A DNA stretch of 63,944 bases, the filler included, from Stramenopiles sp. TOSAG23-6 (Eukaryota), in the NCBI GenBank assembly GCA_900128565.1. It is 8 parts of 8 records of this genome, joined end to end, with 100 filler letters (N's around TTAATTAATTAA, not from the genome) between each part and the next. Parts side by side here need not be neighbours in the genome. Positions count along the whole stretch, not along the records: positions 11,923 to 23,741 come from LT636236.1; 7 more parts are not named here. One strand, 5' to 3'. This document shows positions 70-59,300 of this stretch, in pieces. The notes below the pieces were generated by a model. The model was not told the DNA's origin, did no database searches, and saw nothing but the letters and a program-made list of their open reading frames with translations. Numbering within the stretch: position 1 is the stretch's first letter; each line of letters starts with the position of its first letter. The position numbers and the translations under genes were made by a program.

Positions 70-1450
70 ATCATTATTCACACGTTGGTGGGCAGGAGCG
101 AAAGGAACTCGTGAGAGCGAGGATATCATTTTTGTGGAATGTTTTTTCTCGTTTGGGTTAGGGTTATATGATGTAGACTCTTTATTAGGGTTAGGGGACT
201 GATCTTCTACAATTGATGCTCTTGATAAAATGTATTTTGGAAAAATATTTCAGAAAAAAAATCGTTAGGTACAAAATTTCGTACGAAAAAAACAAATCGA
301 ATTTGAAAAAAAATAAAACGTACATATATTCACCTAAAAACACACCCGATTCTAGTGGCTTTAACAAAAAAAGTATGAAAAGTAATACAAAATATTCAGT
401 TATTCTATAAAAAAAAAGAATATTTGTTGAATAATAATCTTGTTTTCGTGCATGGTGTAGAGTGTTACGATTATATATGAAAAAGTAACCAATCAATAAT
501 GTATATCGAATTGAGCTATCAAAAAAGCATTCAGATTTTTCATTACATGCAGCTCCATTTTGTTTCCCACAAAATGTTGTTGTACAAATCCAACTAAGAC
601 CAATAAAGAGAAGCAAAATTATAGACAAATATACAAAAATGTATGCAATATTGTATGAAAATATCATAAAAAGCAATACTAAATGTACTGTACGGTGACA
701 AAGCTCAAATATTCTAATTATAGCCAATGATGATATAATAAATGTTTTCCCATCATTTTTAGGTTTCGTGCTTTTTCGTATTTCTGTGTCGTGTGAAATA
801 CTGATTTCCTCATTCATTTTACAATGACCAAAAAATTTCAAACTAAACAAATCAAACCACCATAATAAATATAATTCAGCAGATGACGTGTACCAGTCAA
901 GGAGTGTTAAAGCATATACATTGACAGCAAATGATTCAAGTAGTAAAGTCCAAAGTATGAGCTCACTGGATTGTGAAAACATATTTTTTTTAACTCGTTA
1001 CGTACAAAATTTCGTACAAAAACAAAATCAAAATTTAATTTTGAAAACATACGTGGTTGAGGAGGGCGAATAAAGTCCAGATGCTTTAAGTAATAGAAGC
1101 CAAAGTGCAGCTGACGAAATCAATATATTACCACAAAAGCTTAAAGAGATGAGCGGTACAATAAGTGAATTGATAAAAAAGCAAGACTTGTTTTTCTTGT
1201 TTTTACCCAGTAGTACAGACCTCTTACGACAAAAATACCACATTAATAAAATAGTCATAAAAATTACGCATATTGGGAATGTATAAGAAACTATGGACCA
1301 AGCATAAGCTACCATGAAGCTGTCACGGGGATCTGGAATATCCGATGTGTGTAGAATAATCAATGCAATGGTAGATGTAATGGTTATCGAAGAAATTAGA
1401 AATAAAGCAAGTTTCAAAGTCCATCGTCTACTTCCCTCAAGGTTTTGCAT
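70..1450 (-). CDS. Multi-pass membrane protein, 3' end truncated; exons 1053-1450, 324-965, 70-229
   Basis: Hydrophobic ORFs 1028..1450 and 191..982 join in frame once the family introns are removed; the frame continues into 70-229. Confidence 0.7.
230..323 (-). mobile_element. Introner-like intron B, GT-AT, 94 nt
   Basis: AT|GTACGTTTT...core motif...TTTTCCAAAATACAT|TTTA; removal gives an open frame. Confidence 0.8.
966..1052 (-). mobile_element. Introner-like intron C, GT-AG, 87 nt
   Basis: AC|GTATGTTTT...TTTTCACAATCCAG|TGAG; joins two ORFs. Confidence 0.85.
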
Positions 1451-1773: not shown

Positions 1774-4700
1774 ATGGCAAATGTGGAACTTCCTGGCCTT
1801 TCGTCATTTTGGCAAATGCTGGGTAAGAAACAAAAGCGAGATCTTATGAATGTGCAGCGCACTGCCGTTCTTTCTTATGTCACTTGTACTAATGGCTGTG
1901 GCGAATTACTAGAAGAAAGCTTGGACTACCTCACTCCTCAAATTGAAAATTTGAGTCGCTATATAACTATGCGTCTTCATCGCCTACCGAATGGCGAATT
2001 TAAAGCTGTTTCTTTTAGTAAGGGTATAAAGCCTAAGAAAAATGCGAGTTCTGGTGAACCTTTTGTTGACATCAAGCCGGACTCATTTTCTATTGTTAAC
2101 CCTGAAACTTTTGATCCGACTGCACCACCAGAGAGTTTGACCTTAGAATCGAAGAAGAAACAATTGTGCCTGACTAACAGTGATTCTTCACATACATCTA
2201 ATGACAAGCGTGTAACAGTTTCTAGTATGAATCCAAAAGAACGGAAAAAACATGAAAAGTGGTTAAGGCATTTGGAAAAGCGACAGAAGAAATGTTGTTG
2301 GTATTGTCGAGATAAACTTAACTTACACTTTATTGATATGCTAACTTACCCTCGACCAATAAGACAATTTGATTTGTTGGTCTCTGAATCAAGTAATATT
2401 GGTGATATTCGTGCGTTGATGGCTTCTGAAGTGAATATTGATGTGAATACTTTAATTTTGATATCAAAGGGGAAAAAGTTAGAAGATGACTCGCTAACCC
2501 TAGCCGATTTACGTTTTCGGAATAAACAAACTGTTATTTTATCTAAAACCATGCCTACAAATGCTGGAGGTACTCCAGGTTTGGAAGAAAAGAATAAACA
2601 ATTTGTAGGTGATTTACTATTTGGTCAGGCTGGTGTGGCTTGTGATCTTGGGGAAAGGTACGTTTTCATCATTCATTTTAAATGTTTTTTTCGTAGAAAA
2701 TTTCATACCTAACGATTTTCAAAAAAATATTTTTCACAATTACAGGGATGGGTCTGTTATTGATCGATTTAGAGTGATGCAGGGTAACCAATTATTAGGT
2801 TTAGCTATTGAAAAGGTACTACGTGGTCGTGTTTGTGATGCATGGCAGGCTGAAGTGCTTGCGCGGTCAAATGAATTAGCATGTACGTTTTAATTTTTTG
2901 AAACTCGATTTTTTTTTTGTACGAAATTTTGTACCTAACATTTTTTTTTTGAAATATTTTTCCAAAATACATTATTGAACTCTTTATTGGAGGATAAAAA
3001 GAATGAAATAAAAGACAAGACAAAATCAAATAAGAAGAAGAATAAAAAGAAAAAAGCCCGAGATAAAAAAAGAGATTTGGCAAAAAAGAGACAAAAAGCA
3101 GAAGAAGCTGCGGCAGTCTCTGAAGCACAGAAGAAAATGGAAGCTAAAAAAGCTCGCAAAGCTAGACAAGCTTTACTTAAAAGTGAACAAGAGGAAGCCG
3201 CAAAAGTAGTAAAAGAACGTCTCGAAAAAGAAAATGCAAAAAAACATGAAGAAAGACGTGCAAAAGCTGATGCTTTACGTCTCCAACTTCGAAAAGAAGA
3301 AGAAGAAAGAGTTGAACGTGAAGCGGCTGCATTAGCATTGCAACATATCATGGAAGAGGAGGAGGCTGCAAGAGTAGCAAAGCTTGAAACTGAAGCTAGT
3401 ACGTTTTCATCATGAATTTTATTTTTTTTTTTGGTTTTCATACGAAATTTTGTACCTAACAAAACAATTTTGAGTGTGTTTTTTTTTCACAATTTTATTT
3501 TTTTTTATTATTATGAAATTTTGAACCTAACAAATATTAAAAAAACAATGTGGTATATTTTTCACAGTGCATGGCGGAAAGAAAAGAAAAAAACAAAAAA
3601 AGCGTTAAAAAAGAAAATGTTTGAAGAGCAACAACAACAACAAAAACAAAAACAACAACAACAACAACAACAAAAACAACAACAATTCCACTTACAAAAG
3701 AATATTTCATCTAGCTGGGATAAAAACGTTGCACGAAATAGACCTGTGGCATCTGAAGAGTGGGAGAAATCTAGAGTTATCAAATGTAGTTCTTGTGGTA
3801 CATTAAATAAAACATCCGGGAATTTTTGCAGTAATTGTGGGACTCGATTACCTACTTCTCCAACACAACAACAAAGTTCGTTTTCTTCTCCACCACAACA
3901 ACAAAGTTCGTTTTCTTCACCACCACAACAACAAAGTACTATGACGAGAAATAAGGAACTTTTACAGTCTCAGGTACAAATTCCTACGAATGAATCTTTA
4001 GAACGAAATGATCGAAATGATTTATTTATTCTTCAGCAACAACAACAGCAAGCTTTGATTCAGCAACGACAATTGGCGATTCTTCGACGTCAACAACAAC
4101 AACAACAGCAACAACAACGTAAAACACAGCAATCTCAAAAAGGAATTTGGAATATGTCCAATCATCCAACGGCTTCCGCTATTAGTAGAACCGTAAACCC
4201 TAACCCGAATCATCAAGCGACTTCCGATATGAATAGGCCGAATCTTTTTCCACCTGGTTTTCCTTTGAAGAATAATGTTGGTGGATCTTTGGTGAATGCA
4301 AATTCTTCCATAATAGGAGGCTTTACAAATGAAAACAGTGTGATGAAATCTTCTGGTATTATTGGACATCGAATAAAAAGTGATGATGTTAGTCGTATAA
4401 ATGCTAATAAAGCGTTTAGGAATCATGGACTTGGTACTGCGCCCTTAGTCCAATATCCTATTGGCAACACTAGAAATTCAAATAAGAATAATCTTATTCC
4501 TAATCCTAACCCTAACCCGAATCCTATTGGCAACACTAGAAATTCAAATAAGAATAATCTTATTCCTAATCCTACAGCTGCGCTATTATTACCAACTTCT
4601 TTACGATCTGTATCGACAGGTCTACGTATGTTTTATATGAATTTCTAATTTAATTTTTCATACGAAATTTCGTACCTAACAAATTTTAGTTTTTTTTTTT

Positions 4701-5131
4701 AAATATTTTTTCACAATACATCTACTAGTCTATCTACTAGTCCAAAACATGATGCTGTACTCCCATTCTTTGAGCAGATGCGTTCTGGGAAAACATCTCA
4801 ACAGTATAATAGTTCGTTTTCTAGAAGAGACGATCCAGTCCATGCCCCGGTTAGATCTCCGGGTAGAGGAGTAAAAGATTTGTCACTCAATCTTGGGAAT
4901 GAGGGGATGGGTACTCAACAAATTGGAAATTCACTAGGTACGAAGTTTGGTACGAACTCAATTTCGAATATTGGTGTCCAATTGAATGCTCCGGTTGGGA
5001 ATATTGGTAATATTGGTGTTCCAGTGAATAATGCGTTATGTGATGATGTTACTACTAGGCAAGAGCCATTTGATCCAAAATTATTGAGCGTACCATTAGA
5101 TCAGTTAAAATACAATAGTCTTTTCTTTTGA
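1774..5131 (+). CDS. Ubiquitin-like domain, coiled-coil, zinc-ribbon, Gln-rich protein; exons 1774-2657, 2746-2882, 2973-3398, 3573-4625, 4722-5131
   Basis: Five ORFs join into one after removing four family introns; UBL-like LISKGKKLEDDSLTLADL, CxxC-CxxC ribbon, polyQ. Confidence 0.75.
2658..2745 (+). mobile_element. Introner-like intron D, GT-AG, 88 nt
   Basis: AG|GTACGTTTT...TACCTAAC...TTTTCACAATTACAG|GG. Confidence 0.88.
2883..2972 (+). mobile_element. Introner-like intron E, GT-AT, 90 nt
   Basis: GCAT|GTACGTTTT...TTTTCCAAAATACAT|TA; gives ELALLNSLL. Confidence 0.85.
3399..3572 (+). mobile_element. Introner-like intron F with internal duplication, GT-AT, 174 nt
   Basis: Two core/branch motifs; removal gives ETEARRKEKKK. 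Confidence 0.75.
4626..4721 (+). mobile_element. Introner-like intron G, GT-AT, 96 nt
   Basis: AC|GTATGTTTT...TTTTCACAATACAT|CT. Confidence 0.82.
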
Positions 5132-5310: not shown

Positions 5311-8300
5311 TCAATACTCTGGGTTCCAAACCTTTTGGACTACTTCGGGTATGAATGAACTCGATGTTGAATCTAATTTTGGGGCTTTTTGCTTGTCATA
5401 CCAATTAGGATTAGAATTTGACATTGATGGATTTTGGAAAAATATTTAAATTTTGTTTTTGTTAGGTACAAAATTTCGTATGAAAACAAAATTCAAATTT
5501 GAAAAAAATTAAAACATACATGGATTGGATAGCGACCCGTTCGATACGTCACTCTGGCGACGAGAATGATCCCATTGATTAGTTTCACAGTGATTACCAT
5601 ACTGAGTATTTGAATATATATTCGTATTATAATTCATTTTAGACTTATGTTGCGGAAATCCTAAATCGTTCGCAGTATGACCAAATCCTTTAGAAGACGA
5701 ATATACACCAATAGATCGCCCACTAGACTGTATATTAGTTGAGTGTGAATTGTGTTGATGATAGGAAGGATAACTCCCTCTAAGGCTTTCATGATGATAT
5801 TGGCCCTGATTTTGATTATAAGAGGCATTCTGACTATTACAAAAACTAGACGATGTACCGTAACTATCACTGTGATCATTATTTCCATAATATTGTTCAT
5901 TCCTCCAAGTTTGAATATTATTAGAATGACTATTCCCACCAACTTCCTTTCGATACTGATAATCATTTCGATGGTCGTTTCGATGATATTGGTCAATCCC
6001 AGCATTAGTATTAGTGTTATGCGAACGAAAATTGAAATTACTTCTCTGAGAATTTTGATAATGATAATTATTAGAGTTAGTGTGATTATTACGATTTCTT
6101 CGACGATTCTCAAAACTTCCTCCTCCACGATACCCACCTCCACTATTTATTGAACTTTGGTCTCTGTTGTTTCTACTATAATGTGAGCGATCAACCTTGG
6201 AGCGATATGATCGATTCTCGTTATAGGACGAATTAGAAGACTTCATATCTTGTGCCCTAGGAAGACTTGGAGTATACTTTTTCATATGTTCAGTAGCATA
6301 TTGACATCCCTCGGGAAAGCCCCAGTATCGAAGCTTAATTTTTTTTCCTGATATAATAATTGAATTATTATTATTGAAACGATTCAATGCTTCTTTAGGT
6401 CCTCGGGAGTTTTGATAATGAGCAATACTAAATCCGTGTTCTATAAAATTTTCAACAGAAACCGCATGCTTAAAAATAATCTTTAGTAAACTAATTTCTG
6501 TATTCTGAGGGATATTGCCAATATACAGACAATTTGCAGAAGTATATCTTTGAGACGTTGAAGTATCTCCAACGGAAGAGGTCTTAGATAAAGGCTGAAT
6601 ATCTTCACCAAGTCCTTTCGCTTTCAGACAAATTTCCTTGTGCTCGCGAAAAATCGCCAATGCATTTTCTTTCATACTCATTTCACCAAGTACAAAATTT
6701 GGCCATGAGCCCTTAGGTCCATACTCTTGGCTGTAACGATTTGTTGCCAATACAACAGATTTCACTGCTCTGGCAATTGCACCATCTGTTAGATAAGTCA
6801 TTTCACCATCTTCGCTCACAGCTGCACGGATTCTTTGTTCAGTATAGCCTTTATTTACATCTACTGGTAATATGTTTAAGAGATCATTTGTTTGAGACGT
6901 GATAAATGAGTGTAAATTTCCTGCATCGTATATTTGAGCCTCGAAATCAGCGTATTTGGCTGTTCCAGAAGACCATTCTTTAGGTGGATGATTCTCGTTC
7001 CAGTGGGGAGTGTAATATGTTGTATTACCAGGGAAAAAATCTCCTCCACGAATTCCAGGATTCAAAACACATTTCACAAATTCATTAAATGAAGATATAG
7101 GTTGAGCTCCGCATTCTACAAGTGCCCAAAAAAGTGCATTTTGTACATTTATTCTAGTCTGAGGGGAAAGAGATGTTGAATTTTTTGACCCTTCTACATT
7201 TTTTGAATTAATATCTGTAGAATTTGATGAAGCAGGCTCGTTTACTCCAATTACAATCTGATTCTTTGGACTAGTTTTCACCATTGTTTGATATGGATTA
7301 TGAGCATCTGTATCATCAAATATTGATTTCGAAGATGACTTTGAAGCATTATTAATCGTAGTATTCATATAGGGAGGAGCTTCAGAAAATGATTCAGTAT
7401 TATTTCGATCTCTTGTCGTCGTATTCATGTAGGACAAAGATTCAGAAAATGATTCGGTATTATTTCGATTCATAATTTCATTTTGTGTCTCCTTGGTATT
7501 ATTTGGACCTACTGATTCAGTATTTAAACCTACATGTGTCTCATTTATATCAACATCAATCATACCATTTTTTTTAGAATCTTTCTTTTCTTCAAGTTTA
7601 CTCAAAACACCTTCAATTCGTTTTGAGAAATCGATCGACTTATCGAGCACTTCTTCTTCGTTATACCATTTAGCCTTTAGTAAAGGGTTATTCTTTTCAT
7701 TTACCGATAGATATGGCCAACGCTCGCCAGTAAGGGCTTCAATGAGTAAATCGCCGCGATCTCGACTAGATACTTCCAGAGTACAACTAAGAAAATTGCT
7801 ATTATCATACGGCTCTTCTATAAGCTGAACATTACCAAAACTTCCAAATGCACGAATTACTTGATGTTGAGAGGTCTTCGGGGGTAATCTCATAATGAGA
7901 ATCTTCTCTATCTTTTCAGAAGGACTTATATCATTCACAGTTGCTTTCTTTGTCACACTTACTTTATTTATCGTATTGTAAGCACCACCAATAGCACGTA
8001 AGGCAGACATAGAAGCGAGTTGAGCTGTTGATGATGCCAAGAGTGATGCAGACTTTGCACGTTCCATCTGCATAGCTACTGCGGCCGCGGCTTCTTTCTC
8101 TTTATCTCTCAAAATCGACGCAGCATTAGACGCGTTTAATGCTTTCCCAGCAGCTCTGAATGCAAAATGTGTTGCAAGACTTGATACAGAAGTTGCTAAA
8201 GATGATGCTGATGCTGCTTTGGCTGCTTCTAATTTTTCTAACTCGCGTTTTTTTAAAGCCTCTTCTTCCATTTGTTTTTGTAAAGCCTCTTCTTCCATTT

Positions 8301-11300: not shown

Positions 11301-11766
11301 TTACCATGTATTGTGAAAAAACATTTTTTTTGATTTTTTTTTTGTTAGGTACGAAATTTCGTACGAAAAAAAAATTTAGATAAAAATTTGAAAAAAATAA
11401 AACATGCATGTGAACACTTCGACTTAGAACACTAACAGACTCTCGAATTTCATGTACGGTGGAAAAAGATTTCAAAATTTTTAAATTAGTTAGGTACAGA
11501 TTTTTTTACGAAAAGAAAAAAATAAAAAAAAAATAAATTAGAAATCGAAAACGTACATCATCTTTCAACATTTCTGATCCTTCTCCTTTTTCAATTTCTT
11601 GCATACCTTCATCAATAGATTGAGCAAGAAAAGAACCATAATTGTCACATGATGTTATTATGGCCTCAACACCATCAATTTTAACCTCCCAGTCTTCTAG
11701 AACAATATCATCAAACAAATCGTGAAACTCAGAAGAATCGAGAATTTTCTGAGTGATATAACGATG
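5311..11766 (-). CDS. Large ankyrin-repeat, coiled-coil, RRM-containing protein, 5' truncated; exons 11557-11766, 11408-11451, 5520-11305, 5311-5426
   Basis: Ankyrin repeats (TVLSYAIQYGRSDIVRMLI), RRM-like CLYIGNIP; 1988-aa ORF extended through family introns. Confidence 0.8.
5427..5519 (-). mobile_element. Introner-like intron H, GT-AT, 93 nt
   Basis: CCAT|GTATGTTTT...TTTTCCAAAATCCAT|CAATG. Confidence 0.78.
11306..11407 (-). mobile_element. Introner-like intron I, GC-AT, 102 nt
   Basis: CACAT|GCATGTTTT...TTTTCACAATACAT|GG. Confidence 0.8.
11452..11556 (-). mobile_element. Introner-like intron J, GT-AT, 105 nt
   Basis: GAT|GTACGTTTT...TACCTAAC...TTTTCCACCGTACAT|GAA. Confidence 0.8.
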
Positions 11767-11974: not shown

Positions 11975-13487
11975 ATCCATCTGGCTTTACAAATCCTGAG
12001 CTACTTGTAGTAGCGACAATAGGGTTAGGGTTAGGAGTGTTTACAGCATCAGTATTAGGTTTTGATGATTTCATCATTGTTAGAGATCTAGAATTATAAT
12101 CATTTTCATTTTGAATTTGTACGGCAGAACACGAAACATCATCAAAAAATGAATCATCATAAGTATCACAAGCTTCAATGGTCTGTATTTTTTTAGTACA
12201 ATCTTGTGACTCATTTGAAACATCCATAGATTCCAATGTAGTTTCGATGGACGTTGAAGCGATACGCTTTTTCACAGCTTCTTTACGCAATCTTCTCTTC
12301 TTAGCCTTAGACATTTGATCCCATCCTTCAGGTTTCTTGAATGCTGTAGGGTCACTAGAAATAGAATTAACCGTATTGATATCTCCAGAAATAGAATTAA
12401 CCGTATTGATATCTCCAGAAATAGGACTACATTGTACACTTGATGTGATAGTTGCTGATACTATGTTCTTGTGCACTGTTTCGTCAATGTCTGTATTAGT
12501 TTTTTTTGATACTTTTTTCAAAGTTTCAGATTCTTCACATTTCAATGATTTCACCGGGCCTTCAGACTCAACAGAGGAAACTTTTAGCAGACTTAACTTT
12601 TTTTGGGCACGTATTTTTCGAAGGCGTCGACGTTTTGCCTTTGACATGACCTGAGTTTCCTTCTCAGCTCCCTCGACTGTCTCTAAGACATTTGTTTCAT
12701 CTGTGACAGAGGCACGAACAACGCTGGATTTCTCTTCACGCTTCCGTTTCATCTCTTTTTTAGGATTTTTACTAGATAGTTTTTCATCATTCACCACAGG
12801 AATGACATCATTTTGAGTCAGAATCGTTTTCTTGCGCATTGATTCAAGGATTTCATGTTTCGCCGCTTTTCGTTCAGCTTTGCGTTTGGCTTTACGTTCA
12901 AGTTTGGCAGCTGGACTATTGTCTTTCAATGATTTTTTTATCGCTTTTCGTTCAGCTTTGCGTTTGGCTTTACGTTCAAGTTTGGCGGCTGGACTATTGT
13001 CTTTTATTGGCTTTATTGATTCTACAGATTTTGGCACAGATATTACTGGTAGATTACTACTTTTAACCAATGAATCAGGCGCAGTATTTGCTTCTTTTGC
13101 AGCAAACAACTTCTCTAATCTGGCGAGACGTTTTTTCAATTCGTCATTCTCCACTTTCAACTCACGAAACTTTATAGGCTCATTATTCTTTCTAGATATG
13201 TCCTCTTTTGAACGCTGTATATTTTGCTCAGAATTTTGCATTTGGCATTGCCAAGCTAATTGCTCTGCCTGTAATTCAGAGAATGCAGTCATAATATTAT
13301 ATACTCTATCTTCTCGTAGTGGTGCCAAGCAGCAGTACTTCAATTTAGACTGACTACTCGCACTCGCTTTGGCTTGGCTTGGGAGGGATTTCGTGTTTTC
13401 GTTTTTTTTGTAACTGCTGAAAAGTTTGTACCATTTTTCATTAGGTAAAAAAAAATTGTCGGTTGTCTTACCGTATCCTTCCTTCAA
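11975..13487 (-). CDS. Lys-rich hypothetical protein, 3' truncated (ATG possibly 13292)
   Basis: Long ORF with repeated MSKAKRRRLRK and KDNSPAAKLERKAK motifs. Confidence 0.65.
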
Positions 13488-13548
13488 CTACGCTTCTTCC
13501 AAAATACGCAAAAGAACGTGTTTCAACTTACTGTATCACTCGAATATC

Positions 13549-16374
13549 ATGTTTATGAATCAGAGTAACTTTTCAGATGGAGATTCTTCATCTGATGATC
13601 CTTTTGGAGACAGCCCGTCTCGAATTCGAAGCTCTGGAGCTCTAGGAGGTCGTTCAACACTATCAAATAGTAGTGGTCGTACCCCGTCCCCTCAAGCACC
13701 AACCACACCGGTGGGCAGTGGTGGAGCTTTTACGTATAGTGGTGGATTTAGTAGTAGCGGATTCTCTTCAAGAAAAAATCAAAAGTCATATTCTCATTCT
13801 TTACATGGCGAAAACGACGATGGTCCACCTGGTGATAATTTTGAACGATCTCAAAAGATGGAAAGACAACGCGAACGGGAAGCGAAGAAACAAACTGAAA
13901 GTTTAGGTAGTCGTTCTAATGGAGGTATTATGATGTCATCCACTGCAAAACCTCACCGACGACGTATCATGCAACAATTTTCAGCTCCTCGACGTTTTGA
14001 AGATGATTTTTCAGCACCTAAACGTAAAAGAGAGAAACCAAAAGCACCCGTGTTTGATCGACGTAACCGTTTTCAGGAATCTTCAAGCGATGATGATCAA
14101 AATGATTTTGATGAAGAAGAGACGACTGTTCGAAAAGTAAATAATCATAATAATAATAACGTTTCGCTAAATGGGGCATTTGGTAAGGCACTTTTTGTTG
14201 AAGACGAAAGTGTTCCTGATAATAAAAAAACACTTTCTGAATTGTTTGGCAAAGAACGAGGAAGAAAAAAAGAAAAAAGAGAGAAAAAAACTCGATCAAA
14301 AAAACCAAGGAGTACTTTTCAGAATGAGAGTAAACAAATTGTTGATAACCTCAAATCTACGTTCTTTGCTGATGAGGTTGTTTCATACAGGACTGGAAGT
14401 AAATCTCCAGTTATCGATCTAAGTCCTACTAGTGAGTCGAAAACAAAGGCATCAACTTTTAGTTCCTCCGACCGTAGAAAAAGACCAAAGCGCTCAAAAA
14501 GGCCGAAACGATCAAGTGGTCCTCCTCCTAACACAATAGATACGTTTTTTGATGATGATCAAAACGCTGGAAATACTTCAGTCACGATACAACTTCCAGG
14601 GATCAGAGATTCTAATTCAGATTCAGGTAGCGATGGAAGTGGTGTAAGTATTGTGACACCACCGGGGGAAAGGGGAAAAACGCCCCCTCGTAAACATTAC
14701 CACAAGCGCAATGATAATAGTAACGAAAATCTATCTGAAGATTCTAATGAACCAAAAAGATATAAAGGTTCACAAAGAAATTCTCGAACCAAAAGAAAGA
14801 ATTCATCAAATACAAAAGAAAAATATCACTACGGCGACAGAGAAAGCAATTCAAATTCTTTTAGTGCTGATGACTATGATGAAACCTCACAAGGAAAGAA
14901 AATACCTAAGCAACATGATGACAAATACGAAGCTTTGTACAAAAGTCGTCGAAGTCAAGAGAAACGCGACAATCGTAGGAATAAAAGACGCGATCGTGGT
15001 CCGAGAGAAAATAACAGGTATAACGACAAATCCAAAAAAAGTAATGCGGAACTTGAAAGAAGGGGACCAAGAGCCGAAAGAGCACTCACTGATAGTAACG
15101 ATAGTGATGATAGTTATCGCAGATCAAAGAAAAAGAAGAATACACGTCGAAGTCTGAGTGATAGTAACGATAGTGATGATAGTTATCGCAGATCAAAGAA
15201 AAAGAAGAATACACGTCGAAGTCTGAGTGATAGTAACGATAGTGATGATAGTTATCGCAGATCAAAGAAAAAGAAGAATACAAATGATAGTGATGATAGT
15301 TATCATAGATCAAAGAAAAAGAAGAATTCACGTCGAAGTCTGAGTGATAGTAATGATAGTGATGATAGTGATGGTAGTTATCATAAATCAAAGAAAAAGA
15401 CCAAAAAACGTTCACCAAAAGAGAGAAGTTCTCGTTCATCAAAGTCTGCTCGTCGTGAAGAATTTTCACCACCAGCAATGCAACCTGTAACTTTTAATTT
15501 TTCAAATATGAAAATATTTAATACAGCACCACCTCCTAAGAGGGCTGGTACTATAGAATGTTATATAGAAAGAAAGAAAAGCGGTCTTAAAAAAATGTAT
15601 CCTGAATATTATTTATATATGAAGAAAGGTCAACGATTTCTTTTGGCGGCAAAAAAACGTAAGAATAATAAGACTTCAAATTATAATATTACTTGGGCCA
15701 AAGAAGGTATAAAAAAACGAAAAAGTGCATCATTTATAGGAAAATTGAGATCAAATTTTGTTGGCACAGAATTTACTTGCTACGATGATGGCATCAACCC
15801 TAAAGATATAGATTCTGTCGACTATAATGGAGCAATGGGAGCAGTGAGGAAAGAGCTAGTAAGTATTCAGTATGCTTCGAATGTAATGGGTTCAAGGGGA
15901 CCAAGAAAAATGAAGGTTTGCGTACGTTTTCATCGTTAATTGTTTTCCTAAACTTTTTCCTTAGTAAATTTTGTACCTAACGTTTTTTTTTACGAAAAAA
16001 AAATATTTTTCACAAAACATGTACCTGCTGTAAAAAATGGCCGAGCAGAGATATTTAAACCATTGAAACGTTCGGAAGGTTTAGCTGCGAAAGCAAAACA
16101 ACAAGAATATAGTAATTGTTTTGTTCTTATTAATAAACCACCGCGCTGGAATGAAAATGTTGGGGCTTATGTATTAAACTTTTGTGGACGAGTGACAATG
16201 GCGTCTGTGAAGAATTTCCAATTAGTTTCACCAGATGATCATGATACAGTTGTATTGCAATTTGGTAGAGTAGGGAAGCATATGTTCACAATGGATTATC
16301 ACTGGCCATTGTCACCTTTTCAAGCATTCGCAATTTGTCTTAGTTCATTTGATTATAAACTAGCTTGCGAGTGA
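13549..16374 (+). CDS. Tubby-like protein; exons 13549-15921, 16021-16374
   Basis: Tubby motifs [42 protein letters not shown]. Confidence 0.92.
15091..15400 (+). repeat. 69-bp coding tandem repeat ([23 protein letters not shown])
   Basis: About 4-5 imperfect copies visible. Confidence 0.9.
15922..16020 (+). mobile_element. Introner-like intron M, GT-AT, 99 nt
   Basis: TGC|GTACGTTTT...TTTTCACAAAACAT|GTACCT restores [10 protein letters not shown]. Confidence 0.88.
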
Positions 16375-21547: not shown

Positions 21548-22366
21548 CTATAGTTCATGTTCATCTGCGCACTCTTTTGGATTTTCTAAGCAATCTCTAT
21601 AATATTCTGCTTTTCCCAGAATTTCACGCCTGTATTTTTGAAAAATATTTCACAAAAAAAAACGTTAGGTACGAAATTTCGTATGAAAAAAATATTCGAA
21701 ATTGAAAACAAATAAAACAAACATCATATTCTTTATATCATCGTTTTTGGCACAATCAGGAAGTTTATCTGTATGCGTTTGCAGTGCAATGTGTCGGTAT
21801 AACTTTTTTGCTTTTCTAAGGCTTCTTTTTCCAGGAGATAACCGACGAAGTTGAGCAAAATCACTGTAGTTCGAGGCTAGAAATTTCCAAAACTCTTTTT
21901 TGTTATCTACGTGTGTTTTATAGTGTAGGATCCACTGTTTATACAAAGTGCATCGCCCACGGTTTTCTCTCCGTCGACGTTTCTGGAGTTCGGCAGACTC
22001 AGATGTGTCCCCCGCAAGTCTGTCAAGTTCTGCTTGTTTATCGAGGCGTAACAATTCTTGCCTCTTTATGTCCTCCTGTGTACGATATTTTCGATCTTCC
22101 CATTCTGACACATCACACACAAAACCAATACTTTCAACCTTACTAGACTTACACTTTATTTTCTTTATCTCTCTTCCTAGTTTAATGACACGACCATAAG
22201 AGTCAAATACTGATGCATATTTTTCTAGAAAACGGGCTTTTGCCTTTTTTTTGGCTAGCCTTTTCAACACGGCAGATTTATTGACTGTGCCATTACAAAC
22301 AATCTCTATTGGATACTGAAGAAGGAAGATAAAAGACACGGTTAAAAATAAATTAAGAAGAAACAT
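21548..22366 (-). CDS. Putative ER-luminal protein with degenerate J-domain; exons 21723-22366, 21548-21629
   Basis: Hydrophobic N-terminus, KKLYRHIALQTHTDK, spliced C-terminus ADEHEL*. Confidence 0.7.
21630..21722 (-). mobile_element. Introner-like intron N, GT-AG, 93 nt
   Basis: AT|GTTTGTTTT...TTTTCAAAAATACAG|GCG. Confidence 0.85.
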
Positions 22367-23942: not shown

Positions 23943-24933
23943 ATTTAGCACGTTCACAAGCTGTACGTAGTCGTCGAAGTGCACGTGGATCTTTTTCAAC
24001 TCCTGAACCTTTTCCACGGTTTTGTTTCCGAAATTCACGAACACAATGTTGAACCATTGTCGAATCGAAATCTTCCCCTCCAAGATGAGTATCACCAGCA
24101 GTTGCACGTACTTCAAAAATACCATCTTCAATTTGGAGAAGGGATACATCAAATGTACCACCACCAAGATCAAATATTAATACAGACTGTGGGGTATCGC
24201 TACTCCCTTTCATGCCATATGCTATAGCTGCAGCAGTAGGTTCATTGATAATTCTCATGACATTAAGGCCAGCAATACGACCAGCATCTTTAGTAGCATT
24301 ACGTTGACTATCGTTAAAATATGCAGGAACTGTAATCACAGCATTCTTTACTTCACTACCGATGCGTGTTTCTGCAATTTTTTTCATTTTTTGAAGTATA
24401 AATGCTGATATCTCCTCTGGTCGAAAACGTTTGACATCACCTTTATAACTTACCTCAATCCATGGTTTGTTATCCTGTTGAGTGTGTATAGTTTAAACAT
24501 TTAAAAAATGTAAATAACTTTAATATATATATATTATTGACAGTGAATGTCAAGATATGGTTTATAATGGGAATATGGTTTGTAATGGGAATAACACAGG
24601 AATAATATAAGTAATACTTACCTTATCAGGGACAACACTAAATGGCCATAACTTGATGTCTTCGCGCACAGCTGGATCGTTAAATTTTCTACCAATAAGA
24701 CGCTTAGCATCGAAAACAGTATTTTTGGGGTTTACAGAACACTGCTCTTTTGCAGCAGGGCCAATGAGTCTTTCAGACTTGGTAAACGCTACATAAGAAG
24801 GCGTCGTTCGAGACCCTTGTTCATTTGATACAATGTGTACCTGACCACCCATAAAGTGACCCACGCATGAATACGTTGTCCCTAAGTCAATACCAATTGA
24901 ATGACCGGTAAACTTGGAGCCACCATCTGCCAT
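23943..24933 (-). CDS. HSP70: Cytosolic-type HSP70, 3' truncated; exons 24622-24933, 23943-24474
   Basis: [42 protein letters not shown]. Confidence 0.95.
24475..24621 (-). other. Canonical GT-AG intron
   Basis: AAG|GTAAGT...CAACAG|GAT; joins [12 protein letters not shown]. Confidence 0.92.
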
Positions 24934-27909: not shown

Positions 27910-30900
27910 ATGGAGTCTAAAAGAGAAAGACTTGCAAGATTAACTAGTGAGAGAAGTACTGTAGACAAAACGTCGAAAACAAATACGTTTGATTCAACAG
28001 ACTCAAAAGATAATGAAACTACAAATATATCAACAACCAAAATACCATTGGCAACAAATGACGAGGCAGCACAACCAACGATAGAAACAAAGACTAATAA
28101 ACAAAAAATCCCTCAAAATACGGATCTTGTTGTCAATACAAAGAGTGTAGCAAAGAAGAAAGAAACCGTTAAAAATGTTGTCGATACAAAGGCTACCACA
28201 AAAAAAAAAGATATAAGAAAACAACCTCGATCCAATACGGCTGATTCCAATGACACAAAAAATGACACAAAAAAACCTACTTTAAATCCTTCAAAAACTC
28301 AAACTTCAAATGCTAACAATAGTAAACAAGATAAACCCAAAACAACACTTGATACAAAAGACTCCAATAAAAACAAAACAACACTTAATACGGATAAAAA
28401 AGTCCCAAATAAACGACTTCAATCAAGTCAATGGAAAACTTCTTGGGGTTATAAAAGTTCCGGTTGTCTTTGTATGCCTTTACAAAGTTGTTGGATTTCA
28501 TTTGCAAAGAGACTTGTTGGAAAATTTGGTATGTCAAGACAAGAAAGTCAAAAAAATCTTTTAGATAGAGAATTTGGTACGTCTGAATGGATCAAAAATA
28601 AAAATGTAACTGACAATTCAGAACAATCAGAACATTCAGAACAATCAGAACATTCTTCNAATNAAACNAAAANTTGNTTTTATNAATACTGCACGATACA
28701 ATACAATGAAAAAGATTTTCCCAGGTGGTAAAGAAGAATCCCAAAAAAAAAATTGGTTTTGTATCCGAATCCATTCAACTGATGCATTACCATTGACAGA
28801 GTTTCTTCGCGAACCTGTTGTGAAAGTTCACATTGTCAATGCAATGACTGGTGAATATATTTCTAAATCAAATTTAACTTCAAAAAATGAATTTTTTAAA
28901 AAAGGAAACAATGAAAATGAACATAAAGAAACAGAAGAAGATGGAATACGAAATGAATTTGGAGTGATAAGTCGAACTGAAAATGCTACATGTATAAAAA
29001 CAATGGCAAATGTACGTTGAAAATATTTAAAAAGAAAAAAAAAAACTCAATTTTTTTTTCGTACGAAAATTTGTACCTAACAAAAAATCCAAATTTTTTT
29101 TTTTTCACAATATATGGAAAACGCGTTCGAAAAGAAAGCTATTGTACAATCATAACACCAAATATGACTCAATGTTCTACTATTTCAAAAAAGACAAGAT
29201 CTGCTATATGGAATGAATCTCTTTATTTTAGATGTCCAATAGAAAATATTTTAAGTCCAAATATAATCATATTTTTTGAACTTTTAGATCGAGGTAATAC
29301 GATAAATCGAAAACTTACATATGCAGGACGTGGTTATGTATCTTTAGCATGTACGTGTTTATCATTAATTTCGACTTTTTTANTTTTTTTTTANTTTTTT
29401 TTTNGGTATGAAATTTTGTACCTAACGATTTTTTTTAATTTTTTTTTTTTTCACATTACATGGGGATTTCTGCGTCCTCTGGCCATCGGTGGACATCCTT
29501 ATATTGGAGAAAAAGACACGATCCGTCGTATTCAATTATTCAAACATGTAACACTTGGTCGACTGGCGAGAGCTCAGCAATGTAGTTCTGCAGTAGGAGC
29601 TGGAAATCCAACTTTAGTTCCAGATGTGTTTTTTCAATATAAGTTACTGAAAAAGCGCAAATCATTTACATCTTTATTAAATGTCTCGATCTTTCCAAGT
29701 GAAAACCTCGTTGACAAAAATGTTTCATATAATCCAACCATGCCACATGAGTTAGAAGTTATGCCATCGAATGAAACGTATTACGAGAATAGTGTTTCTC
29801 CAAAAGCTAGAATGACTACTATTCCAGTTGACCATGTTGAAAAAGAAAAAAAGATGAGTTCTTTACGATTACGCAGATTTCGTGGTAAAGACAAGCCATG
29901 TTTACTTCCTGATCGATTGTTACATCGAATCCCTACAAACTCTACACTAGGTTGTCTTACTTTATTATTTTCACCAAATGGTCGAATTCTTGCCGCGGCT
30001 TGTGTTGATGGTACTACATACCCAATACGATTGTATGACGTTCAAAGTGGCGCTTTGCTAGATTCTCTCACTGGTCATTTAGGCCTAGTGCACTCTATGG
30101 TGTGGACAGGGGGTAGTCTTAGTGAGGTTGTTGAATTATTATCTGCATCTGCAGATGGCACTTGTAAAATATGGAACTCACCTGCTTCATTAGAAAGTAT
30201 GAATGGATTTGGGAGTGGCACAGTGAAAACGAATAATGACTCGGGTAATGGAGAAGCAAAAGGATTTAGAACACAATTATTACAGCAAACATTAAAACAT
30301 CCTACAGCATCATTTGTGTATTCAGCAATAATGCATCCTATGTATCACTTACGATTAGCTGTAACAGCAGCATCGGATTCACAAATTAGACTCTGGAATG
30401 TTGATACAGGTTTGAGTATAGGAAGTATCGGGTCAAAATCAAATCTTCCACATAAATCACATGTTAATTCCATTATTTTTGATAGAAAGGCAAGAAAACT
30501 ATTCAGTGCTGATGGTGATGGAATTTTAGTTGTCTGGCGAATTACTGGTACTCCAAGTGAGACTGGTTCTTATCAATTAGTTAGAATCATCTCAAAATAT
30601 CAAAATTGCTCAATACTTAATTTAGTAGCAAAACCAGATACGAATGATTTTGCTATTCTTGCCCAGAGCAGTATTTTACGAATTCACGAAATGCTTTCAC
30701 CTTATAAAGAAGTAAAACTTCTTCGTGGCTTCAAGTGCAATGAATCAACTGATACTCAATGTTGTTTCTCACCTGATGGACAGTTTGTACTTAGCGGAGC
30801 TGAAGATGGAAATGCTCACTTGTGGGAGACAAAAAAGGGTAGGAGACTTGGTGGTGATCAATGGGAGCTCTTTTTATCAAATGGGATATCTGGAGTAGCT

Positions 30901-42085: not shown

Positions 42086-44907
42086 TTAAAGTTTATCAAG
42101 ATAACGTCCAAGAGGTGGAAGATCTTCGTTCATACCTTTGCGTTTACGTGTCTCTCGGACAGCATCAAAAGACATACCCTTTTCAACAGCATTACCTGGG
42201 AGAGTTTGCCAATGATCAAAACAACACTGAGGGAAAGCCTGACCACCAGTAGCAGCACGGAGAGCAGAATCAAAACCAAAAGACTCCTTGACTGGAAGGT
42301 AAGCCTTGACAACGTTCATTGGAGTTCCAGCACGTGGAGTTTCAGCAAAGACATGACCACGACGCTGAGTAAGTGTTCCATAGATACCACCACAAGCTGA
42401 CATTGGGCAAGTAATTTCTACAAGGAAGACTGGCTCGCACAAAGATGGCTTGGAAACATAAACACCAGCAAAAAGAGCACGACGTGTTGGAGGCATGATC
42501 TGACCCATACCACGATGGATAGAATCCGCGTGCATGGTAACATCATCAAGTTCAAACATGATACCACGCATTTTTTCACCACAGAGAGGACCTTCGCGAG
42601 TAGCCCATTGAAAACCACCATTGACGGATTCCTTAATCTCATTTAAGTATTGGACACCCTTGGTAGCATCAGTGAAGAGATTTGGACCAGTGCCATCAGG
42701 GCCAAAAGCCCAAATCTTTTGAGCATCTTTAGCATCCCAACCATAAGTATCTGCCATATGACGAGCACGCTTCTTCTTATCCTGACGAGCATCAATAGTT
42801 CCGTCCTCAATTTCTTTGATCATTTGCTCTTCAAGAGGTAAAGCATGAAGGTAAAGACGGTTGTGCTTATTTGGCGACTTGGAAAGAACTTGTGGGCCTT
42901 CCTCTGTGATTGTTTCACAATATTGAACAACTGGTGGAGAAATCTTAATTTTGCATCCTTTCATGTAATCATCCTGAAGATCCTTCAAGCAAATCTCAAG
43001 ATGGAGCTCACCACAACCAGCAACGACGTGTTCACCAGATTCTTCGTGAGTAATTTGGACCATAGGATCAGATTTGGAAAGACGTTTGAGTCCTTCGACA
43101 AGCTTTGGAAGATCACCAGCAGAGCAACATTCAACAGCAACACGTACAACAGGAGATACAGAAAACTTCATCATCTTAATTGGATGACATTCTTCTTCTT
43201 TAGCATCACACAGAGTACCACACTTGAGAATGTATGCGTCAATACCGACAAGAGCACAAGTATTACCACATGGAATGTCAGCAACCTGATCGACGGATCG
43301 TCCCATCATAATAACAGTACGTTGGACAGGTTTGACTTTCAAATCAGTCTTCCTTCCAACTTCGTAGTTTGGACCCATGATACGGCACTTTTGTCCAGTT
43401 CTAATGGTACCGGAAAAAACACGACCAAAGGCATAGAAGCGACCCTTGTCACTGGTTGGAACCATCTTGGAAATGTACATAAGCATGCAACCTTCACGAT
43501 CACAATCGCGCATAGCTTTAGCGTACTTATCATCCTGAGGACCGGTATAGAGAAGCTCAGTACGGTATTTCTGTGCCTTCCATGGAGATGGAAGGTGAAG
43601 AACAATCATTTCCATAAGAGCTTCAGCAGCAGGTAACCAACGCTGCATAGCACGCTTGAGAAGAGGTTTTTGACGGAGGTCAAGTTCATCTTTCTTGAGT
43701 TTAATACCAAGTTGTTTGAACATCTTGAAGCAAGCAAGAACTTCTTTTCCAGTCTTCTTGTTGATACGTTTGGTTTCGTTAATTACACACTCAAAAAGTT
43801 GGTACAATGGATCAAGAATGAAATGTACAAAACCACGTTTGATACCTTTGGACTTTTTGTTGGTAAAACAACGTTTTGTAGGATTGTAGAAAGCTTCACC
43901 CCAAAGTTTGTCACGCATAATAGCTTCAGGAATACCAAACTTGGAAGCATACATCTTAGCAAAGTATACAATGGTAAAACCCCACTGGTGGAGACCAGAA
44001 CCGAAAGCAACTGTACCCTTGGTTGGGTCGACAAGAATATTCTCAACACCTCCATAGAATTCAGAAAAGTTTTTGTCAGCGTATGTGTTAATAATGACGT
44101 TGACATCCTCAATTACACGGGTAAGATTAGTATAACATTCCTCAGGAGGAAGGTTAAGCTCGAGAAGGACACGGTCAAGTTTGTTACACATGACAACAGG
44201 TTTGACACGTTCACCAAGAGCTTGGCGTAGGACAGTTTCAGTTTGAACAGCGACACCTTCGACACAGTCGACGACAACAAGAGCACCATCAGTGACACGA
44301 AGAGCAGCAGTTACCTCAGATGAGAAATCAACGTGGCCTGGTGAATCAATAAGATTGATGAGGTATGATTGAGAACCAAACTCAACTTCTTCTCCCTTTA
44401 CACCTTCCTCGCCTTCCTCTCCAGCAACAGTTCCAGTGGCAGCATCATACTCGAAATACAAGGAAATACCAGTGGATTTAATTGTAATACATCGGTCCTG
44501 TTCATCTTGACGAGTGTCAGTAAAACGAGCATCACCAGCCTTTTTACCAGCGATAATACCAGCCTTACAAACGAGAGAATCAGTAAGTGTGGACTTTCCG
44601 TGATCAACATGAGCAATGACTGACATATTACGAATTTGCTTCGTAAAGTTCATCATCTCACGCATTTGTTCTACTGTGAAGTTAACCTAATAGGTACAGT
44701 ATAACATGGATATTTATAAATGTTAGTCATTTGATATAAAGAAAAGTTTCGACAAAGAAAAAGAAACACAAACAAACTCAAAGTTAGCTCCTGGTCTATT
44801 TCAATTTCAGCGACGACATGTCAACGAAAATCGCGACCCACAGATAGCAATTGGAAAATGCGATACAGAAGTGTATAACAATAATGTAAAGAAGATAAAC
44901 TTACCAT
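42086..44907 (-). CDS. EEF2: Translation elongation factor 2; exons 44905-44907, 42086-44686
   Basis: [31 protein letters not shown] start after splicing. Confidence 0.98.
44687..44904 (-). other. Canonical GT-AG intron after the start codon
   Basis: ATG|GTAAGT...GACTAAC...TATTAG|GTTAAC. Confidence 0.9.
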
Positions 44908-56356: not shown

Positions 56357-59300
56357 TTACTCTTTATCATCTTGTTTTTCTGAAGGTAAAGTGCTCACAC
56401 TGGAAGGTCGACCAGTAGTTATAGGTGATTCAATAGATTTGGAGTCTACAGAAATGTCTAGTTCACTTTCTGTTACTTCTCTTCCACCTGATGCTAAAGA
56501 TGCGTCTAAGTTAGAGTCATAATCATATCTATTGTCCAAACTATTCCTCCCACCTAGTCCTACTGAAGAATTAGCGGGTGATTCCAATTCACCCCGTTTC
56601 ATACCTAAAGTATTTCTCGTCAAACCTAAACTTAAATCATCATTAAATTCGGAGAACATTGATGCATCACTTTCTTTATCATCTTTTTTATGTTTTTGAA
56701 CAATTCTGTCTGCGGCTTTCTCCAATGAAGTCGATGACTGAAGCCCTCCTAAGTAGTTTTGATCACCTGCGCTATCTAGTGCAATACTATCATTTAAATA
56801 TTGACTACTGTCAAACGACGACATTGGACCTATACTGTTACTAGTATCCATACTGAGACCAATATTATTTTCATCAGTAGACAATTTCTTTTGATGACCT
56901 TTGGAAAATTTTTCCTGAAGATTTTTCTGGATCTCAAAAAGTTGTTTCTCTCGCTCTGCCATTAATTTTGACATAAATTCTTCATGCTTACGACGTTCCA
57001 TAAGAAGTTTTTCATCAGTTTCGCGTCTAATCTTTTGAACCATAGATTCTTGTTGATGGCCATGACGACGGACCATTTCATCCTCTAACTTCTGTTGCGC
57101 ACGAACAAAAGCAAGACGTTCCTGCAATTCTTGATCACGGAGCATCATTTCATGCTCAATTAGACGATGTTTTGCATGCTCTTTTTCAAGTTCCACCATT
57201 TGCTTTGATACCGATTCTTCATCTGCAATAATCTTTTGAGTCTCTTCGCGATGCATAGTACGTGTAGCTTCTTCCCACTGACGACGTTTTTGGTCTGCTT
57301 CAAGTTTTTTTAAACGTTCGTTCCACTGCTTAGTTTTTTCTTCATGAGCTTCACGAGTTTTTTTTAATCTTTCTGTGCGCTCTTCATTACGCTTTTTTAA
57401 AGCTTCATTGCGATCATCAATTAATTTTTGTTGCTCGCGTTGCTCTTCTTCAAGTAATACCTTCTGTGCTTTTTCACGTTGCTGAACCTGCATTTGTGCT
57501 ATCTTCAATTCATCTTCGGCTGAATGACGAAGTCGTCGCTCACGTTCAATTGCTGCCATTTTTTCTGAATGCTTGGCGCGTTTTGCTTGCAATTGAGCCA
57601 AAAGACCTCGCTGTACCTCGATTTGTTGATCGACCTGTAACATTTGTTGTTGTTTTTCCAATTCAATGCGTCGCCTTAATTGTCGTTCTTCGTCCTCCGC
57701 GCGCCAAGCCTCATGGGTTGCCTTATCCTCCTTTTCTAATACATCAAGTTGAACCTGAATTTGACTACGCATATCATGCAGATTCTGCTGCTGCATAGCC
57801 TCTTCTTGTAATTCGGCGATTCGTTGGTCACTCTGGAATTCAAGATTTTGTAACGCTTCTTCATCACGTAAACGATCTACATCTTTTTTATTATTTATCT
57901 GTTGAGTTTCCAACCAAGTTGAAAGTTCTTCTGCATTAGCCTCCATACGAAGTCGGGTATTGCGCACTGCTTCAACTGAAGATTTCTCACGCGCACCGAG
58001 ATGTTCAAGTCTTCGTAGACGCATCTTATGTGCTAGGTCATTTTGCTCTTCAGTGAGTTTTGCATTGATCTCAGAATCTTTTTCAATTCTTCGCTTCTCT
58101 GTGATATCTAGAAGTTCCCTAGTTCGCTGCAATTTTTTTCGTTCTTCCTCCATTTCTTTAGTGATTTGAGCCAACGCATTGAGCTTTCTCTGTTGTCCTT
58201 CCACGCGCGATTGTTCAGCTTCTATCTGTTTTCGTCTTGCAGCTTGAAAATCAACGACTGCTTTTGGAAAACCAATGAATAATGGATATTGCCCACGCGA
58301 CAATATTGGTTCAATACTGCTGCCCGCACCACCACATTTACCTAGATCTTCTTCTACAGCAGAAGGAATTTCTTTTGATGTACGAAGTAATAATTGGGAC
58401 ATTTTCCACAAACGTCTCACATCAATAGCATTCTGTCGTCTCAGAAATTGACGAACTTCTTCAGCCGTATGACAGCCAAGTAATGCAGTTCGAAAAATAC
58501 GAATATATGCAAGAGCACATAATGGAAATAAGCTTGGTTCTCTCCAATTAGCTATGAGATTATCCCATAATTTTAACCATTGGGGTCGGGTGAGAACTTC
58601 TGAAAATGCACTCTGTAACATCGGCCAGCAATATTCATCAGCAGCGATTCCAATATCTGTAAAGTGACGATGAAGAGTAGCATCATGAGAAATAAGGCAT
58701 CGCTCAAAACTTTCTAGCAATACTACAGGAGGACCTGGCATATTGGCATACCAGCCTTTACACCAATGCATAAGAACACACGACAATAATTCAAATGAAA
58801 CAACATCATCAGAAGTAGATGTTGTCTTCACAAATGGGAATGATAGGACTGGGAGATAGGGTAATTCAGCGAATACAGGCGACCAATGACCCAATGCTGA
58901 TAAAATTCGTTGTAATCTAGCAAGCAATCGTCTGTTCTTTATCGGGTACCTGTCGGATAATGATTTAAATGCAGGGTGTATACCTCGCTGTCTAAGAGCA
59001 TCAAATGCAACGCGATTTTCTGGAAGTCTCAATAGAAATCGCCAACATAAAAGTCGATGTTTTACGGGAAATGTATTTTGGAAAAATATTTGAAAAGTTT
59101 TTTCGTTAGGTACAAAATTTCGTACGAAACAAAATTCGAATTTGAAAAAAAATAAAACATACATTCACCATGGCTTGATAATAATCTAAGTAGTGACTCC
59201 TCATTGATATTCGACTCCGCGTCAGATACTCTGGTCAGTCTATGTAGTGGTGGATTGGCTTTGGGTTCAAGAAAATTTTCTTCCTCCTTGATTATAACAT

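Follow-up and report, generated by a model that had tools for sequence, protein, structure and literature searches.

Introners are short, non-coding, high-copy elements that form sense introns in unrelated genes of Micromonas, Aureococcus, dinoflagellates and many other, mostly aquatic, eukaryotes; they bring one or both splice signals with them, and once they are removed the open reading frame (ORF) of the host gene is intact again (PMC9860276, PMC12130899). In stramenopiles they have been described, e.g., from Aureococcus and Pelagomonas (PMC9860276, PMC12130899, PMC9481584). Short boundary repeats are reported for some introner families and not for others (PMC9860276, PMC12130899), and the survey text of PMC12130899 gives AG and AC as the sole 3' ends, families with unfamiliar ends having been discarded unless supported by RNA. 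Elsewhere, spliceosomes are reported to use an AT acceptor in rare cases (PMC1557818), the repeat-derived introns of the tunicate Fritillaria borealis are described as removed by an adapted major spliceosome (PMC11282704), and duplicated U2AF subunits are reported to bind the non-canonical 3' ends in Fritillaria (PMC13326754). Here we describe a 99-nt insert with GT...AT ends in a Tubby-like gene of Stramenopiles sp. TOSAG23-6 (15922..16020, + strand; assembly GCA_900128565.1), together with the repeat family to which it belongs. Like introners, the copies of this family are short, non-coding, numerous and in sense in unrelated genes, carry splice signals and leave an intact ORF upon removal; unlike the surveyed introners with their AG and AC ends, the family shows AT in 12 of its 15 known 3' ends. 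All positions refer to the whole stretch of 63,944 nucleotides that was analyzed (the window), which joins eight contigs, five of ~11.8 kb and three of ~1.4 kb. Judging from the sequence, we consider it probable that this is an introner family with GT...AT ends that is removed by the spliceosome.

The insert separates the two halves of a Tub domain. Exon 1 (13549..15921, +), taken to start at the first ATG of ORF 13414..15939, carries half 1 of the domain in its final ~130 codons, and a second ORF (15952..16374, +) carries half 2, with exon 2 (16021..16374, +; VPAVKNG...FDYKLACE) ending in a TGA stop at 16372-16374. Exon 1 matches positions 4-139 of the Pfam Tub profile (PF01167; E=4.8e-35) and the exon 2 frame positions 139-255 (E=2.6e-46 to 3.9e-46). 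Over both exons the domain is complete and has the usual ...KLACE terminus, as in Tubby/TULP proteins (PF01167; PDB 1c8z, 2fim); unlike these, the predicted protein has a long low-complexity N-terminus (~620 residues) with 23-residue acidic/basic repeats, and its domain is interrupted by the element. About four tandem 23-residue units lie at 15000-15400 (+), inside a long Ser/Lys/Arg/Asp-rich region of this N-terminal part.

Exon 1 ends at 15921 in phase 0 with GGA CCA AGA AAA ATG AAG GTT TGC (GPRKMKVC), and exon 2 opens at 16021 with GTA CCT GCT GTA (VPAV). When aligned with the solved TULP1 structure (2fim_A), exon 1 runs to chain residue 158 and exon 2 continues from 159, with gap 0 and overlap 0. 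The motif GPRKM-x4-P is ungapped in 40 out of 40 aligned homologues (the first 40 by id among 76 listed), three of which read KMKVCVP and other close ones KMKVVVPAV. A wider count covered 210 Tubby relatives, 190 of them having PRKM plus downstream sequence: Pro stands five residues past the M in 169 of these 190, and most of the others keep the spacing with a different residue. Since the Tubby junction is collinear with TULP1 and with the homologues, exactly 99 nt must be removed. A preliminary description of this locus had proposed that excision of 15922..16020 restores the Tubby KMxVxxP pattern and had named an alignment with Tubby orthologs as a check; that alignment, gap-free at the junction in all 40 homologues, and TULP1 bear the proposal out.

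The same description had claimed an AT acceptor, which is now supported by 11 further copies of the family ending in AT. It had regarded the sequence from CCTAAC (15976-15981) to the AT end as free of AG, and a scan to 16020 confirmed this. The AGs that follow downstream end at 16045, 16048 and 16050, of which the last alone is in frame; as had been expected, an acceptor at 16050 was rejected on the homologue alignment, since it would cost ten residues present in 40/40 homologues, the conserved Pro included. Upstream of the branch motif, an AG occurs in CCTTAG (15959-15964), and a candidate acceptor at 15964 was rejected because an in-frame TAA follows it immediately. The GTAC of 15922-15925 recurs at 16021-16024, so that the junction can slide through five equivalent registers (GT-AT, TA-TG, AC-GT, CG-TA and GT-AC); enumeration of all five gave no AG end, again in line with the earlier account. 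This flanking repeat is peculiar to the Tubby copy, most other copies having AT ahead of the donor. What the preliminary description had not recognized is that the insert belongs to a high-copy introner-like family, whose context narrows the register to GT-AT.

Within the insert, the donor GTACGT (15922..15927, +) follows the family consensus GTAYGT. The core motif TTTGTACCTAAC (15970..15981, +) includes a putative branch site CTAAC 39 nt from the 3' end, and the terminal AAAACAT (16014..16020, +; ..AATACAT in the family) ends in the dinucleotide AT. The stretch from the branch motif to the 3' end holds a T9-ACG-A9 inverted repeat (15983..16003, +), which is found only in this copy and adopts a hairpin in the minimum-free-energy (MFE) fold. 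The surrounding element core (e.g. 15960-15981; consensus TTTCGTACGAAATTTTGTAC) is partly palindromic (TTTCGTACGAAA) and matches the family profile on both strands. In many copies the palindromic core forms a small GUAC/GUAC stem beside the branch motif, and in the Tubby copy it has decayed to CCTTAGTAAA.

The Tubby insert scores as a copy of the family with nhmmer (E=1e-09). The window contains 21 copies, ~1 per 3 kb, each of ~87-111 nt besides a 174-nt composite. They are spread over at least 12 genes, hit most multi-exon genes and all lie inside coding ORFs; 14 of the 21 loci are complete, the other 7 being truncated at contig or window ends. An nhmmer search with a 13-copy profile retrieved 20 loci at E<1e-3 and, in addition, a single 5' fragment, and the 12-mer TTTGTACCTAAC, allowing up to 2 mismatches, gave 30 matches versus 7.1 expected. 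Two weak 40-nt partial matches (4932-4971 and 54350-54388) were excluded from the copy count, and inspection of the sequences behind weak intergenic nhmmer or motif matches at 31124-31196 and 45100-45420 showed that these are not copies. The 13-copy consensus reads GTAYGTTTTA..TTTTT.AAATT..(variable)..TTTTTTTCGTACGAAATTTTGTACCTAAC(R)..T-rich..AAATATTTTTC(C/A)A(C/A)AATACAT. The 20 available 5' ends are GTACGT (10), GTATGT (7), GCATGT, GTTTGT and GAATGT (1 each), and the 15 available 3' ends are ..CAT or ..TAT, i.e. AT, in 12 cases and ..CAG in 3. CTAAC is present in 13/14 complete copies, 32-41 nt from the end and followed by T-rich sequence, and 12/14 have no AG between CTAAC and the end. Family membership, strand bias and conserved splice-like signals are established. 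Pairwise identity among copies averages 0.61 (range 0.46-0.88); the copies have diverged yet the host ORFs are intact, and the insertions are therefore old and tolerated.

Complete AT-ending copies other than that in Tubby were located at 230..323 (-; 94 nt, GTACGT..ATACAT), 2883..2972 (+; 90 nt, GTACGT..ATACAT), 4626..4721 (+; 96 nt, GTATGT..ATACAT), 5427..5519 (-; 93 nt, GTATGT..AATCCAT), 11306..11407 (-; 102 nt, GCATGT..ATACAT, a GC donor variant), 11452..11556 (-; 105 nt, GTACGT..GTACAT), 29012..29115 (+; 104 nt, GTACGT..ATATAT) and 29351..29461 (+; 111 nt, GTACGT..TTACAT), the last two in a Jouberin-like WD40 gene, and 59071..59162 (-; 92 nt, GTATGT..ATACAT), in a RabGAP-TBC gene. The composite, or double, copy at 3399..3572 (+; 174 nt, GTACGT..GTGCAT) consists of a first copy minus its 3' end running into a second minus its 5' end; the frame is kept only if the whole is excised, and an AG lying 5 nt before the end (3567) breaks the frame, whereas the AT end preserves it. 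Copies of the AG type occupy 966..1052 (-; 87 nt, GTATGT..ATCCAG), 2658..2745 (+; 88 nt, GTACGT..TTACAG) and 21630..21722 (-; 93 nt, GTTTGT..ATACAG), the host gene of the last being J-domain-like by eye. Two same-strand partial copies flank one spacer between contigs, 11923-11974 (-; profile 1-47) and 11768-11821 (-; profile 50-94), and the contigs that bear them may be neighbours in the genome, or the arrangement may be due to chance. Five contig ends beside the first three spacers fall within an element copy, a pattern that a repeat interrupting the assembly would produce.

When cut out from the donor to the final base, 14 out of 14 complete copies leave their flanking long ORFs joined in frame (chance 1/3 each, 2e-7), and the 11 AT-ending copies outside Tubby restore their host ORFs only when the AT lies inside the excised piece. 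For the copy at 4626..4721 sliding is impossible, which leaves GT-AT as the sole register, and its first five downstream AGs (+7, +19, +53, +56 and +83) are all out of frame. All 20 copies tested run in the sense direction of the flanking ORF; at E<1e-3 the window yielded neither antisense nor intergenic copies, palindromic-core matches of the same loci aside.

A second homology check comes from the WD40 gene at 27865-31050 (+), which is Jouberin (AHI1)-like. Removal of the copy at 29351-29461 forms a TGG codon from T + GG and yields ..YVSLA-W-GFLRPLAIGG.., where orthologues have ..LSKIA-W-AFLKP.. or ..IAWGFLRPIAENG.., the gap lying exactly at the element's 37 read-through codons; the orthologous IAWAFLKP and IAWGFLRP thus stand against YVSLA-W-GFLRP here. 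The excised extent is established by homology for Tubby and Jouberin and by reading frame for 12 more copies. With its architecture recurring in 20 further copies, the Tubby observation is far beyond chance. The Tubby-like (13549-16374, +) and Jouberin/AHI1-like genes are two cilium-associated genes in the window, which fits a flagellate.

These two junctions also bear on the register, which an mRNA junction alone does not define where the ends of exon and intron repeat. The permitted registers are 0 to +4 for Tubby and -3 to +1 for Jouberin, the shared ones being 0 (GT-AT) and +1 (TA-TG), and only register 0 coincides with the conserved GTAYGT (17/20 5' ends). The Tubby and Jouberin junctions, taken with the conserved donor, therefore give the register GT-AT. 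Across the family, GT(GC)-AT is the sole pair fitting all 11 complete AT-type copies.

We propose that the 99-nt insert is a spliceosomal intron made by an introner-like element, i.e. a short non-coding repeat that has colonized many genes in sense. Each copy would supply a strong donor of the U2 type (GTAYGT), a branch motif like that of yeast (TACCTAAC), a T-rich tract and, ~32-41 nt past the branch motif, the conserved 3' end ..AATACAT. Intact host proteins would require cuts placed precisely ahead of the GT and behind the terminal AT, which would make the acceptor dinucleotide AT, not AG, in most copies. The major (U2-type) spliceosome presumably recognizes GTAYGT and the CTAAC branch site and, after a T-rich spacer of fixed length, would use the terminal CAT in place of the usual CAG; the three ..CAG copies appear to differ in that single last base only. 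Two features expected of U2-type introns are present, a GTRNGT-like donor (GTACGT or GTATGT in 17/20 5' ends) and a branch motif (yUnAy / CTAAC) with a pyrimidine tract, as are those expected of introners: many related copies in unrelated genes, a sense bias and precise ORF restoration. During the second step of splicing in model systems, the last G of the intron pairs with the first G, and the lineage would therefore need tolerance either at this step or in recognition of the 3' site; its machinery would accept U instead of G at the last intron position. A U2AF change similar to that of Fritillaria is, by analogy, a guess at the cause. Either transposition into AT sites or reverse splicing may account for the spread of the element. 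A wider proposal, which we regard as evenly balanced, is that most introns of this genome come from a single family whose donor and branch site are canonical but whose acceptor is AT, the major spliceosome having relaxed its last-base rule (U or G), e.g. via U2AF1-like or second-step factors; the window holds 21 family copies versus 2 ordinary introns.

Several observations weigh against spliceosomal removal at an AT acceptor. The 3' AG of U2-type introns is absent from the Tubby copy and from 12/15 family 3' ends, and an intron with U as its final base is a very poor second-step substrate in model spliceosomes. ORF restoration alone identifies insertions into older ORFs and is not proof of splicing, and the junctions of 12/14 copies are determined modulo 3 and not at single-base resolution. 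In addition, the length is divisible by three in 10/14 complete copies (P=0.004), a bias that could hint at sometimes tolerated retention, and for copies preceded by AT an AT...AC register is possible copy by copy. Finally, no Tubby transcript or protein of the same species was found, the best identity being 61-62% among the 76 and 150 relatives listed, where the exon 1 search excluded proteins of 95-303 residues.

Some of these points would suit a transposon insertion that is not removed precisely. The Tubby copy would then be retained, with a stop after VRFHR truncating the protein, or spliced at 16050 or 15964, and the AT acceptor would be illusory. Any clean insertion restores an ORF when cut in silico, an in-frame AG is available at 16050 and a good-looking TTTTTCCTTAG at 15954-15964, and, beyond the bias toward lengths of 3n, 3/14 copies are stop-free on read-through in the host frame (11407..11306 and 29351..29461 in frame; 323..230, of 94 nt, shifts the frame). 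Against this, 21 unspliced copies per 64 kb, in most multi-exon genes, would cripple the genome, and the sense orientation of 20/20 copies is not predicted by DNA insertion without RNA-level selection. The copies are old, as indicated by their 61% mean identity, yet exon 2 keeps a strong Tub score and a VPAV like that of the nearest homologues. The alternative acceptors fare poorly as well: those of Tubby meet the loss of ten residues found in 40/40 homologues (16050) or an immediate in-frame TAA (15964), copy 4626 offers no in-frame AG among its first five, and the first in-frame AG of the Jouberin copy would delete the conserved WGFLRP. We thus consider imprecise removal unlikely.

Just as unlikely, in our view, is a non-spliceosomal removal guided by terminal repeats (AT...AT direct, ATGTA..TACAT inverted), resembling that of nonconventional euglenid introns or Amoebophrya introners, or the DNA-level excision of internal eliminated sequences in ciliates. 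It would account for the short direct repeats over the boundaries in 12/14 copies and for the complementary ends ATGTA/TACAT, which are paired in the MFE fold of 4/13 copies, and it has precedents in PMC7789003 and PMC11282704. The folds are no stabler than those of shuffled sequences (z +0.6 to -2.3, mostly near 0), however, and the copies have the donor, branch motif and pyrimidine tract of a textbook intron. Moreover, DNA-level excision is orientation-blind, yet 20/20 copies are in sense, and the 3 copies whose last base is G obey the ordinary GT-AG rule with nothing else changed. A long-hairpin fold like that of miniature inverted-repeat transposable elements (MITEs) was rejected, as the 13 copies folded (z values as above) share no structure beyond the small GUAC/GUAC stem.

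A little less probable still are true boundaries in another register, AT...AC for the copies preceded by AT and GT...AC (15926-16024) for Tubby, with C as the last base. AT stands directly ahead of the donor in 15/20 copies (expected frequency 0.089, P=2e-12), an AT..AC register is open to 6/11 AT-type copies and GT..AC to Tubby, and U12-type introns are reported to tolerate odd 3' ends, GT-AT included (PMC1557818). On the other hand, copies 3399, 4626, 5519 and 29012 have no AC-ending register: an AT..AC reading is impossible for 3399, 4626 and Tubby, whose exon ends in GC, and gives AT-CC in the 5427..5519 copy and AT-AT in the 29012 copy. The shifted donors ATGTAY and GTTTTC fit neither the U2 nor the U12 consensus, whereas register 0 gives GTAYGT in 17/20 copies. 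U12-type introns have the donor consensus RTATCCTT and the branch motif TCCTTAAC, typically ~10-20 nt from the 3' end; here the donor is GTAYGTTTT and GTACCTAAC is separated from the end by 32-41 nt, well past that range. AT-AC/U12 as a general rule was thus rejected, 5/11 AT-type copies lacking an AT..AC register and the branch motif being too distant from the end. An Rfam scan of the whole window gave 0 matches at gathering score; a minor small nuclear RNA was not found in the window, which is uninformative for the genome, as Rfam gave no RNA of any kind there.

A base-call or assembly error at 16020 (T for G) in an ordinary GT-AG intron is extremely improbable and was rejected: the draft sequence of the window contains 644 N, some of them single N scattered through homopolymer runs, and a single T-to-G change would yield CACAAAACAG, but 11 other independent copies end in AT and there is no N or homopolymer at 16014-16024.

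Returning to spliceosomal removal of an introner family, the boundaries carry some indication of how the copies spread. The 2 nt ahead of the donor equal the last 2 nt in 9/14 copies (8 AT, 1 AG), which favours a 2-bp target-site duplication, as do the complementary ends ATGTA/TACAT (~5 nt). Tubby (GC vs AT) and four other copies do not fit a 2-bp duplication, repeat lengths ranging from 0 to 7. The occurrence in both orientations and between genes that is expected of MITEs was not observed at E<1e-3. Confined as they are to genes and to the sense orientation, the copies would be explained more readily by reverse splicing into transcripts, or by strong selection, than by unrestricted DNA transposition.

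The two ordinary introns of the window lie in conserved, highly expressed genes and, unlike the family, are GTAAGT..AG. The intron in HSP70 (24475..24621, -; 147 nt) is GTAAGT...CTCAACAG, and that directly after the EF2 start codon (44687..44904, -; 218 nt) is GTAAGT...CCTATTAG, both canonical. EF2 is 91% identical to a metatranscriptome protein and ~60-65% identical to its counterparts in Placidida, oomycetes and other stramenopiles, and these similarities indicate that the host is a heterotrophic stramenopile. The EF2 ORF (42089-44686, -) is identical at 713/715 positions over aligned blocks to EukProt GSMAST32.ASY1.ANO1.241.1 (P0079), the sole public gene model matching the window, whose handle we take to suggest a MAST-3 type lineage. 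Eight internal blocks of 7-42 residues are missing from the P0079 model, whose N-terminus also differs. As the EF2 exon is intact here, false introns were called in that model, and as EF2 carries no family copy, the breaks have another cause.

The contigs of the window are separated by seven spacers, each of 44 N + TTAATTAATTAA + 44 N (11823-11922, 23742-23841, 35651-35750, 47546-47645, 59438-59537, 60941-61040 and 62444-62543). Clusters of single N occur in A- or T-runs at 25608-25627, 28659-28684, 29383-29404, 31167-31190 and 48060-48072. Two apparent frame shifts between overlapping ORFs, one in a TrmO-like gene (~25600) and one in the Jouberin-like gene (~28660), coincide exactly with such clusters; they look like assembly uncertainty rather than introns.

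If the wider proposal is correct, this would be the first known protist with mostly non-AG acceptors beside fully canonical donors, and a natural system in which the 3' splice-site rule alone has moved. With only the last base changed, 3' splice-site recognition would be isolated, whereas Fritillaria and Amoebophrya drift at both ends; confirmation would point to the U2AF small subunit and second-step factors as the place where the spliceosome gives way. It would add another independent case in which invasion by intron-generating repeats is accompanied by non-canonical ends. As a practical consequence, gene finders that require AG will mis-model most multi-exon genes in such genomes. In the literature searched we found neither a GT-AT introner family nor non-canonical introns in MAST-type stramenopiles. 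The introner surveys PMC9860276 and PMC12130899 do not mention a stramenopile of this lineage in the text covered, and the main text of PMC5778133 contains the word intron twice and never mentions splice sites or repeats.

Among described systems, that of Fritillaria borealis is likewise genome-scale, with recently gained, repeat-derived introns of which many end in AT (AG-AT) or AC, according to PMC11282704. Its old conserved introns are reported to be GT-AG (PMC11282704), the same contrast as that of HSP70 and EF2 with the family here. In Fritillaria, however, the departure from the canonical form extends to the 5' end (AG), and the ends vary greatly (PMC11282704), whereas only the last base deviates here, and the host is an animal instead of a protist. 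Amoebophrya introners, as described in PMC7789003, similarly have direct repeats of a few nt at their boundaries, short inverted ends and a marine protist host. They show no preferred terminal dinucleotides and carry 8-20-nt inverted repeats that form hairpins (PMC7789003), unlike the one dominant pair GT-AT, the ~5 nt of terminal complementarity and the lack of a significant fold observed in our family. The same terminal dinucleotides are reported for animal GT-AT introns (a U2-type intron in DGCR2 and seven U12-type introns in human and mouse; PMC1557818); those are single and isolated, whereas GT-AT is here the majority form of a multi-copy family.

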